Positions 15,001-18,000 of a DNA stretch of 64,000 nucleotides are shown piece after piece; the stretch's first letter is position 1, and the number at the start of each line of letters is the position of its first letter. The stretch is taken from the NCBI RefSeq assembly GCF_000026545.1, contig NC_011601.1; one strand, 5' to 3'. Position numbers: made by a program. This DNA comes from Escherichia coli O127:H6 str. E2348/69. GTDB taxonomy: Bacteria; Pseudomonadota; Gammaproteobacteria; Enterobacterales; Enterobacteriaceae.

Positions 15001-18000
15001 CAGCGTCATTAAGCGTCGGGCTTGCGTTTCGTCAGGGTGATTAAGTACCCGTTCAAGGGTGGCGCTAATCTCTTTTAAATCATTAATATCCTGCTCGGCA
15101 AAATGCACTTTTACTGAGTGGATCATGATCCATGCAAAGGCGAAAAACGCCGCGATGGTGGCCAGGCTGATAAAAAAGGTCAGGCGTGTTGCCAGCGAAA
15201 ACGGGCGCTGAAATGGCTTACTGACCATCCGGCACCTCTAGCATGTAACCCACGCCGCGCACGGTCTGAATCAACTTTGGCTCAAAGTCGTTGTCGATTT
15301 TGCCGCGCAGCCGCTTCACCGCCACATCAATGGCGTTGGTATCGCTGTCAAAATTCATGTCCCATACCTGCGAGGCGATAAGCGAGCGGGGCAGCACTTC
15401 GCCCTGATGGCGGAGGAAAAACTCCAGCAGAGTAAATTCTTTACTGGTCAGAGTGATGCGCGTGCCGCTGCGGGTGACTTTGCGGCTGACGAGATCGACC
15501 ATCAGATCGGCAACCTGAAACTGACTTTCGATAATCACCGCCGCCCCGCGCCGCAGTAGAGTGCGCACCCGCGCCAGCAGTTCAGCAAAAGCGAACGGCT
15601 TCACCAGATAGTCATCCGCCCCCAACTCCAGCCCCTTGACGCGATGTTCAATGGTGCCAAGCGCGGTAAGCAACAGAATCGGCATCCCCTTATTGGCGGA
15701 ACGCAACATGCGCACGATATCCCAGCCGTTCACGTCCGGCAGCATAATATCGAGGATTATCAGATCATAATCACCGGTCATCGCCAGATGGTAGCCATTC
15801 AGCCCGTTGTCGGCCAAATCGACCACAAAACCGGCTTCGGTTAACCCTTTGGTCAAGTATTCTCCGGTTTTCTTTTCATCTTCGACAATCAACAGTTTCA
15901 TATTTCCTCCGCATGTTGCCCGGGCAATTCTAGAGTAGCGGGATCAGATGGCAATCGCTTATTGGCAAAATGACAATTTTGTCATTTTCCTGTCACCGGA
16001 AAATCAGAGCCTGGCGAGTAAAGTTGGCAGCATAAAATCACCAGAAATTATGAGCCTATGTCTCCTTGTAAACTTCTGCCATTTTGTGTGGCCCTTGCGC
16101 TAACCGGTTGTTCACTGGCACCGGATTATCAGCGTCCGGCAATGCCCGTGCCGCAGCAGTTCTCACTCAGCCAGAACGGCCTGGTTAACGCAGCAGATAA
16201 CTACCAGAACGCGGGCTGGCGCACCTTTTTTGTTGATAATCAGGTGAAGACGCTGATTAGCGAGGCGTTGGTGAATAACCGGGATTTGCGCATGGCGGCG
16301 CTGAAAGTGCAGGAAGCGCGGGCGCAATATCGTCTGACCGATGCCGACCGCTACCCACAGCTCAATGGCGAGGGCAGCGGCAGCTGGAGCGGCAATCTTA
16401 AAGGCGATTCAGCCACGACGCGGGAGTTCTCGACTGGCCTTAACGCCAGCTTTGATCTCGATTTTTTCGGGCGCTTAAAGAACATGAGCGAAGCCGAGCG
16501 CCAAAATTATTTAGCCACTGAGGAAGCTCAGCGCGCGGTGCATATTTTGCTGGTTTCTAATGTCGCGCAAAGCTATTTCAATCAGCAACTGGCGTATGCG
16601 CAATTGCAAATAGCCGAAGAAACGCTGCGTAATTATCAGCAGTCATATGCGTTTGTCGAAAAACAACTGTTGACCGGTAGCAGCAATGTTCTGGCGCTGG
16701 AACAGGCTCGCGGGGTGATAGAAAGTACCCGCAGCGACATCGCTAAACGTCAGGGGGAACTGGCGCAGGCAAATAATGCATTGCAACTGTTATTGGGAAG
16801 CTACGGCAAGCTGCCGCAAGCGCAGACAGTAAACAGCGACAGCCTGCAAAGCGTTAAATTACCGGCGGGCTTGCCGTCGCAAATCTTATTGCAGCGCCCT
16901 GATATTATGGAAGCTGAACACGCGTTAATGGCGGCTAATGCCAATATTGGTGCTGCGCGTGCGGCATTTTTCCCGTCTATCAGCCTGACCAGCGGAATAT
17001 CAACCGCCAGCAGCGATCTGTCGTCATTATTTAATGCCAGCAGCGGGATGTGGAATTTTATTCCTAAAATTGAGATCCCCATTTTTAATGCTGGACGCAA
17101 CCAGGCCAATCTGGATATCGCCGAAATTCGCCAGCAGCAGTCGGTGGTGAATTATGAACAGAAAATCCAGAACGCCTTTAAAGAAGTGGCAGATGCGCTG
17201 GCATTACGTCAAAGCCTGAACGATCAAATCAGCGCCCAGCAGCGTTATCTTGCGTCGCTGCAAATTACTTTGCAACGGGCGCGGGCATTATATCAGCACG
17301 GCGCGGTAAGTTATCTGGAAGTGCTGGATGCCGAGCGTTCTTTATTTGCAACCCGACAAACTTTACTTGACCTGAATTATGCCCGTCAGGTTAACGAAAT
17401 TTCTTTATATACCGCCTTAGGGGGCGGTTGGCAGCAATAATTTTTAACTCCAGGAGAGAATAAATGAAAAAAGCACTGCAAGTCGCAATGTTTAGTCTGT
17501 TTACCGTTATTGGCTTTAATGCCCAGGCTAACGAACATCATCATGAAACCATGAGCGAAGCACAACCACAGGTTATTAGCGCCACTGGCGTGGTAAAAGG
17601 TGTTGATCTGGAAAGCAAAAAAATCACCATCCATCACGATCCGATTGCTGCCGTGAACTGGCCGGAGATGACTATGCGCTTTACCATCACCCCGCAGACG
17701 AAAATGAGCGAAATTAAAACCGGCGATAAAGTAGCGTTTAATTTTGTCCAACAGGGCAACCTTTCTTTATTACAGGATATTAAAGTCAGCCAGTAATCCG
17801 GGTTTAATGAGATGAAAAAAATCGCGCTTATTATCGGCAGCATGATCGCGGGCGGTATTATTTCTGCGGCAGGTTTTACCTGGTTTGCAAAGGAGGAACC
17901 GCCCGCAGAAAAAACGTCGACCGCAGAACGTAAAGTCTTATTCTGGTACGACCCGATGTATCCCAATACGCGGTTCGATAAACCAGGGAAATCGCCGTTT

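Follow-up and report, generated by a model that had tools for sequence, protein, structure and literature searches.

What does the inverted repeat midway between the divergent copper genes cusR and cusC of Escherichia coli O127:H6 str. E2348/69 serve, and does the short symmetric box make up the whole operator? Both questions were addressed in a window of 64,000 nucleotides from contig NC_011601.1 (RefSeq assembly GCF_000026545.1), in which all positions given below are numbered from the first letter.

The CusR box and the genes around it

The inverted repeat AAAATGACAATTTTGTCATTTT was read directly in the window sequence at positions 15967-15988. The palindrome search that an earlier sequence-only reading of this DNA had proposed recovered both of its arms, at 15967-15976 and 15979-15988, which according to the repeat finder are 10 nt each, 100% complementary and 2 nt apart. 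That reading had described a perfect 22-bp palindrome, a description that holds for the perfectly inverted 10-nt arms but not for the central TT (15977-15978), which comparison of the 22-mer with its own reverse complement revealed not to be self-complementary. The box is thus a perfect 10+2+10 inverted repeat without strict 22-bp palindromy. Regulators of the OmpR/PhoB family usually bind direct repeats, whereas the CusR box is an inverted one.

Written as AAAATGACAA-TT-TTGTCATTTT, the box carries no strand assignment, and its context in the window is TTGGC AAAATGACAA TT TTGTCATTTT CCTGTCACCGG. It lies in the 156-bp cusR-cusC spacer (15902-16057), whose limits are the cusR start codon and the cusC ATG at 16058. 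The centre of the box (15977.5) is only 2 bp from that of the spacer (15979.5) and the flanking open reading frames confirm divergence, in agreement with the earlier placement of the repeat at the centre between cusRS and cusCFBA. Its proposed match to the known CusR operator was likewise borne out: the published E. coli CusR box consensus AAAATGACAAnnTTGTCATTTT (quoted in PMC11195947, from Yamamoto and Ishihama 2005) aligns to the 22-mer of the window with 0 mismatches, at 20 of 20 specified positions, and a search with the pattern AAAATGACAANNTTGTCATTTT, allowing up to 3 mismatches, found this site and no other in the 64 kb, where 100 shuffles put the expectation at 0.01. On the basis of its sequence, its symmetry, the consensus match and the identity of the box in K-12, the inverted repeat is almost certainly the operator of the copper/silver two-component system CusS-CusR.

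On the minus strand, cusR (15218-15901) encodes a 227-aa response regulator of the OmpR/PhoB family, assigned by the NCBIfam equivalog model NF007346 with 507.9 bits against a cut-off of 420, and cusS (13786-15228) encodes a 480-aa sensor histidine kinase that scored 980 bits with NF007345. The cusCFBA operon occupies 16058-22190 on the plus strand, and the products of its four genes, cusC (16058-17440), cusF (17464-17796), cusB (17812-19035), and cusA (19047-22190), each scored above the curated NCBIfam cut-off. The curated models, each passed above its cut-off, name CusR, CusS, CusC, CusF and CusB, with CusA being placed only to the level of the CusA/CzcA subfamily. All six open reading frames are full length. 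RefSeq gives the names cusR and cusC to identical DNA. A 756-nt stretch around the spacer is present in 5336 of the 5426 complete E. coli genomes, and over this stretch strains SK1144 and N1420 match the window at 100% identity.

Protein comparison with K-12 revealed no differences in CusR, with D51 present, and 10 substitutions in CusS, among them M133I, which affects a residue published as a loop metal ligand; H271 and the interface metal site H42/F43/H176 are retained. CusC is 3 aa longer than its K-12 counterpart and the other products of cusCFBA are equal in length, with 1, 6, and 6 residue differences in CusF, CusB, and CusA, respectively. The 22-nt sequence of the box, its place in the cusR-cusC spacer and the CusR protein are all identical to those of K-12. 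The two spacers differ at 2 of 196 aligned bases, both outside the box, at 15989 (C in the window, T in K-12) and at 16029 (A in the window, G in K-12), so that the control region of the cus locus keeps its operator box unaltered with respect to K-12. The box can be used as an annotation anchor for the complete chromosomal copper/silver efflux locus of this strain. With an exact operator, a K-12-identical CusR and six full-length open reading frames, the circuit looks intact, as the sequence-only reading had stated; its further description as copper/silver-responsive, however, amounts to a claim of a working circuit, which exceeds what sequence alone can show.

In K-12, CusS is the sensor of periplasmic Cu(I)/Ag(I) and the kinase of CusR, whose binding to the CusR box turns on cusCFBA and cusRS. 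Phosphorylated CusR activates both divergent promoters, by which cusRS comes under positive feedback, and without CusRS the cusC promoter is not induced by copper. A single CusR peak was reported by ChIP-chip in K-12, within the cusR-cusC spacer, and genomic SELEX (gSELEX) in the same organism found that unphosphorylated CusR binds this spacer only, genome-wide. As the operator and the CusR sequences are identical to those of K-12, we carried this mechanism over to E2348/69. Accordingly with the K-12 model, periplasmic Cu(I) or Ag(I) would activate CusS, and CusR would be phosphorylated on D51; the phosphorylated CusR dimer would then sit on the box, with one winged-helix domain per TGACA/TGTCA half-site, and this one site would serve both promoters, that of cusCFBA for the efflux pump and that of cusRS for positive autoregulation. 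The CusR box of this strain is an already known, ordinary E. coli operator, and it has little discovery value because the operator has been characterised in the best-studied bacterium.

Predicted promoters and a third half-site in the spacer

A third TGTCA-type half-site, TGTCAC, is found at 15991-15996 on the plus strand, within a block CTGTCACC (15990-15997) that is conserved between cus and the plasmid sil loci described below. It is oriented like the right arm of the box and starts 11 bp downstream of the right-arm TGTCA. No mirror-image half-site is present on the cusR side in E. coli, where the equivalent position reads CAATAA, and the extension of the operator is therefore one-sided, towards cusC only. 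The third half-site probably places an extra regulator subunit beside RNA polymerase at cusC, and its presence on one side may offer a simple reason for a symmetric box acting differently on its two sides. CusR itself may make use of this half-site.

Regarding the promoters, a sigma-70 promoter of cusRS is predicted on the minus strand at 15927-15954, with a -35 hexamer TTGCCA (15954-15949), a 16-nt spacer and a -10 hexamer TAGAAT (15932-15927). The sigma-70 scan scored 10 of 12 consensus matches for these hexamers, and both remain promoter-like in sil (TTGATA at -35; TAAAAT or TAGAAT at -10). They would fit a basal promoter boosted by an activator; cusR transcription is predicted to begin near 15920, which would centre the box near -57.5. 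For cusC, the predicted -10 hexamer is TAAAGT (16019-16024, plus strand), supported by conservation, as GTAAAGT does not vary between cus and sil and a TAnnnT hexamer recurs at exactly this distance from the box in 39 of 40 distinct loci of the wider scan described below. No -35 match was found for this promoter, positions 15996-16001 reading CCGGAA, unlike TTGACA, and a cusC promoter without a usable -35 would depend on an activator. From this hexamer, the cusC start is predicted near 16031. Relative to that start, the box would be centred near -53.5 and the direct repeat described in the next paragraph near -43, and the third half-site would span roughly -40 to -35; a mapped cusC start site was not found in the literature on the cusC promoter and copper biosensors. 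The plus-strand sigma-70 scan also proposed TTGGCA/AATTAT (16024-16051) as the cusC promoter, a candidate that was rejected because it leaves almost no leader and neither hexamer is kept in sil.

The same region contains a Pho-box-like direct repeat, TGTCATTTTCCTGTCACC (15980-15997, plus strand), which corresponds to a published PhoB site. It consists of TGTCAT (15980-15985) and TGTCAC (15991-15996) with the 11-bp period of the pho box pattern. The K-12 version of this site is TGTCATTTTTCTGTCACC, from which the window is one base off at 15989 (C, not T), between the repeats. PhoB ChIP-seq (PMC10294691) placed peak 595521 at cusR/cusC, with the motif TGTCATTTTTCTGTCACC, and in the same work cusC expression was 208 in the wild type versus 50 in the delta-phoB mutant, and PhoB enrichment at cusR/cusC was listed as 3 versus 20 for phoA. 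PhoB ChIP-chip, EMSA and reporter assays on the cusR-cusC spacer have been reported as well, with the motif assigned to the palindrome (PMC3465305). HprR (YedW) has its strongest gSELEX peak in the cusR-cusC spacer, and it is reported to recognise the target sequence of CusR with different affinity. Because PhoB and HprR have also been reported on the spacer of the CusR box, the element is a composite operator of three regulators of the OmpR/PhoB family, CusR, HprR, and PhoB, on the strength of binding published for K-12.

Compared with a Pho box, made of tandem TGTCA-type repeats with an 11-bp period (e.g. that of pstS, CTGTCATAAAACTGTCAT), the TGTCATTTTCCTGTCACC element has the same 11-bp direct repeat and an A+T-rich linker. 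It differs in that it overlaps the inverted repeat of another regulator, in its low listed PhoB ChIP-seq enrichment, and in that a 22-nt gap separates the cus direct repeat from the predicted -10 hexamer. In pho promoters, the Pho box usually lies nearer to the -10 than 22 nt. With respect to HprR, the HprR/CusR box at hprR-hiuH (CATTACAAAATTGTAATG), a locus outside this window, is also an inverted repeat with half-sites 4 nt apart and is bound by CusR and HprR, but its half-sites are TTACA/TGTAA, compared to TGACA/TGTCA in cus. The third half-site, the overlap with the PhoB site and the sharing of the spacer with HprR had been overlooked in the sequence-only reading.

Conservation of the operator

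The 40-nt operator, comprising the box and the third half-site, was detected with up to 2 mismatches in 5333 of 5426 complete E. coli genomes, and is thus almost invariant in 98% of them. It was identical in 3379 records and carried 1-2 mismatches in the other 1955, never falling below 95%. The common variant has the K-12 T at 15989, and in the most divergent record sampled, that of strain N96, the left arm is changed at its innermost base and the centre at one position (AAAATGACAGTATTGTCATTTT). In contrast, a 41-nt coding stretch of the cusS sensor domain was identical in only 331 records and showed 80-95% identity in 1646.

For comparison outside the chromosomal locus, sil spacers from Klebsiella, E. 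coli, and Pantoea plasmids were retrieved via the similarity of their flanking genes (~70% identity) and aligned with cus. The blocks conserved between cus and sil are both arms, CTGTCACC, GTAAAGT, and, on the opposite strand, the -10 and -35 of the predicted cusR promoter; the arms are retained in the silR-silC spacers, with the central NN and most of the remaining spacer changed. The silR-silC operator (Klebsiella, Enterobacter, E. coli IncHI2, and Pantoea plasmids) thus shares with cus the arrangement AAAATGACAA-NN-TTGTCATTAT, CTGTCACC, and GTAAAGT at equal spacing, and it is similarly located between a divergent regulator gene and the gene for an outer-membrane channel. The differences are a centre that reads CA instead of the TT of cus, one change in the outer right arm, a spacer of 189 bp compared to 156 bp and of otherwise diverged sequence, and the regulator, which is SilR, a paralogue of CusR.

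A wider scan was run over bacterial contigs of one genome per species (298 Gb) with the pattern ATGACAANNTTGTCATNNNNNTGTCAC, which has 20 specified bases. It returned 41 stretches, against about 0.5 expected by chance according to our estimate; as the pattern required the third half-site, these 41 loci do not give the frequency of its absence. The matches came from Escherichia, Citrobacter, Enterobacter, Kluyvera, Kosakonia, Pantoea, Providencia, Yokenella, and Rahnella, and further from Collimonas, Glaciimonas, Undibacterium, Moritella, Psychromonas, Cysteiniphilum, and one Legionellaceae genome. A TAnnnT hexamer follows the third half-site at fixed spacing, after a 22-nt gap, in 39 of 40 distinct loci, and the loci that combine box, third half-site and TAnnnT belong to gamma- and betaproteobacteria. 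In about 35 of the 41 stretches a gene for a CusR-family regulator is found within 2.5 kb, most such genes being 53-81 bp off, divergent, and on the strand opposite to the third half-site. On the half-site's own side, most loci have a cusC/silC homologue; the gene there encodes a putative exported protein of 207 aa in Collimonas, Glaciimonas, and Rahnella, and a histidine-rich protein in Undibacterium, and in the two marine loci, those of Moritella and Psychromonas, our reading of the translated open reading frames suggests a multicopper-oxidase-like product.

An unbiased view of how often the third half-site occurs comes only from 10 secondary boxes and from those sil and E. coli loci that were retrieved through sequence similarity. 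Among the secondary boxes, which come from the same loci with no third-site requirement, 8 of 10 carry a TGTCA[C/T]-like hexamer at equal spacing on one side (~0.017 expected per box). Related operators are also known from Pseudomonas, where those of CopR/CusR (TGACA-N4-TGTCA; ATTCATnnATGTAAT) are inverted repeats between a divergent regulator gene and a copper-resistance operon, are common to several paralogous regulators, and show multiple TGACA-like half-sites in long footprints, as published for CopR1 and CopR2 of Pseudomonas putida. They differ from the cus operator in half-site letters that are partly other, in their targets, the pcoA/copA oxidases, and in their promoter elements.

A layout of three half-sites is kept from Escherichia to Collimonas, Moritella, and Psychromonas. 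We tentatively propose, at slightly less than even chances, that the textbook 22-nt box is only part of the operator, and that the ancestral CusR/SilR/CopR unit has three half-sites (left, right, right) at a fixed distance from the -10 of the structural gene. The third of them would make the site directional, by placing a regulator subunit at the efflux or oxidase promoter alone (at about -40 to -35), and the binding of PhoB at cusC in E. coli would be a by-product of the ancestral direct repeat, with no pho box having evolved separately. The conserved module of three half-sites and -10 across distant proteobacteria is only a mildly new point, as it was partly anticipated by the report of the PhoB site and by the CopR footprints. 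The conserved spacing of box, third half-site and -10 could help in annotating the cus, sil, and cop operators of other genomes and in engineering promoters for copper biosensors.

Alternative readings of the site

That the inverted repeat arose by chance in an A+T-rich spacer is a reading with only the A+T richness of the arms in its favour, and it can be dismissed: 0.01 matches were expected in 64 kb at up to 3 mismatches, just one other perfect inverted repeat in the whole window, at 1910-1933, has arms of 10 nt or more separated by no more than 4 nt, and the box recurs in 5333 E. coli genomes and in other genera. The shuffles, the sil alignment, the cross-species scan and the conservation within E. 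coli all refute it. The palindrome could otherwise act through its structure, for example as an RNA hairpin, terminator or cruciform, instead of binding a protein, and RNA folding of a 36-nt stretch did yield -10.6 or -10.9 kcal/mol depending on the strand, with z-scores of -3.7 and -4.2. However, the site lies upstream of both predicted starts and between diverging genes, so that no crossing transcript is expected, and only 3 of the 10 pairs of the stem are G-C. In addition, the letters of the half-sites are kept between cus and sil with no compensatory changes in the arms, which is the signature of base-specific contact by a protein. A terminator scan of 15800-16160 found none and no Rfam family matched at the position of the box, and for these reasons, along with the divergence of the genes, assignment to the intrinsic terminators or to a structured RNA class was rejected. 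We consider a structural role scarcely credible.

A different proposal would accept a protein-binding site and make it mainly an operator of PhoB (phosphate starvation) or of HprR (peroxide/HOCl), with CusR as a secondary ligand. It can draw on the PhoB ChIP-seq peak with its motif in the spacer and the four-fold lower expression of cusC in delta-phoB, on the PhoB EMSA and reporter data, and on the highest gSELEX peak of HprR, which recognises the same sequence as CusR. Against it, the cusR-cusC spacer is the only one bound by unphosphorylated CusR genome-wide, the response of cusC to copper needs cusRS, and the ChIP-seq enrichment of PhoB is low (3 versus 20 for phoA). Moreover, the motif is accompanied in the 41 loci by CusR-family regulators and copper genes, and not by pho genes. 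These data make a PhoB or HprR operator with secondary use by CusR very improbable, and favor the operator of CusS-CusR, in which the inputs of HprR and PhoB supplement the control by CusR and do not replace it. One short spacer integrates in this way three response regulators, CusR, HprR, and PhoB.

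Variation in the cusR-cusC spacer

Comparison of the spacer between cusR and cusC (15902-16057) with that of K-12 revealed only two differences, at positions 15989 and 16029. Position 15989, between the two units of the direct repeat bound by PhoB (15980-15997), is C in the window and T in K-12; this position is polymorphic among E. coli and is variable in the plasmid-borne sil loci too. The second difference, A in the window and G in K-12, changes TTGGCG to TTGGCA. Within the spacer of the predicted cusC promoter, 11 bp past the third TGTCA-type half-site (TGTCAC, 15991-15996), we found a further aaACAg block (16002-16007; AATCAG in E. 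coli) that is conserved from Enterobacterales through Collimonas. It might be a fourth half-site in degenerate form, or else an element belonging to the promoter spacer.

Plasmid-labelled records accounted for 5 of the 5344 places in which the operator was found. One such record (NZ_CP110860.1), named "peccDNA113" and derived from a transconjugant, carries nfrB-cusSR-cusCFBA with a K-12-like sequence, and its cus region has the appearance of a chromosomal segment that a plasmid has picked up.

Differences from K-12 in the cus genes

The sensor kinase CusS has Ile at residue 133 in the window (codon at 14830-14832, minus strand), in contrast to Met in K-12. This residue is one of those described as binding Ag(I) at the periplasmic loop site of CusS, namely S84, M133, M135 and H145 (PMC10100754). 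The interface site of CusS, formed by H42, F43 and H176, and residue H271 are the same as in K-12. Of 5335 E. coli records, 331 share the exact 41-nt cusS allele spanning codon 133; among the records, this part of cusS is far more variable than the operator.

Within the cusCFBA operon, cusC and cusF are separated by 23 nt in the window (17441-17463), compared to 157 nt in the K-12 locus used for comparison (L001, 4975-5131). The approximately 134 bp of additional sequence in K-12 has the appearance of what we take to be an intergenic repeat of the ERIC/IRU type. The CusC protein is also longer in the window than in K-12 (460 versus 457 aa), because TGG replaces the TGA stop codon of K-12 cusC.

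Repeats, an apparent prophage remnant and RNA elements elsewhere in the window

Apart from the CusR box, the 64-kb window contains just one perfect inverted repeat of comparable size, CCGGATGCGAGTTTTCGCATCCGG (1910-1933; 10+4+10). It is located just past cysS and ahead of ybcI, which is convergent, and probably forms a hairpin that terminates transcription in both directions. Further along, the approximately 2 kb that follow an argU-type tRNA-Arg with a TCT anticodon (3914-3990) look like a prophage remnant inserted at the tRNA. In E. coli SK1144 (98.7% identical), all that separates this tRNA from a methyltransferase gene and ompT are pseudogenes for an integrase and for tail-fibre assembly. 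The same tRNA-Arg position in K-12 is occupied by a full cryptic prophage, DLP12.

Collinearity between the window and SK1144 stops at about 28.5 kb. A hok/sok-type toxin-antitoxin locus was detected at 28037-28506, with an Rfam match to sok within it (28105-28260), and the two copies of hokE in SK1144 map to one and the same stretch of the window. Rfam searches also gave matches to the ES036/CssrF sRNA (29205-29246), the rnk leader (61410-61518, minus strand; 123.3 bits) and the STnc70 sRNA (57514-57607, plus strand), the latter with a score of 44.1 bits, just over its threshold.
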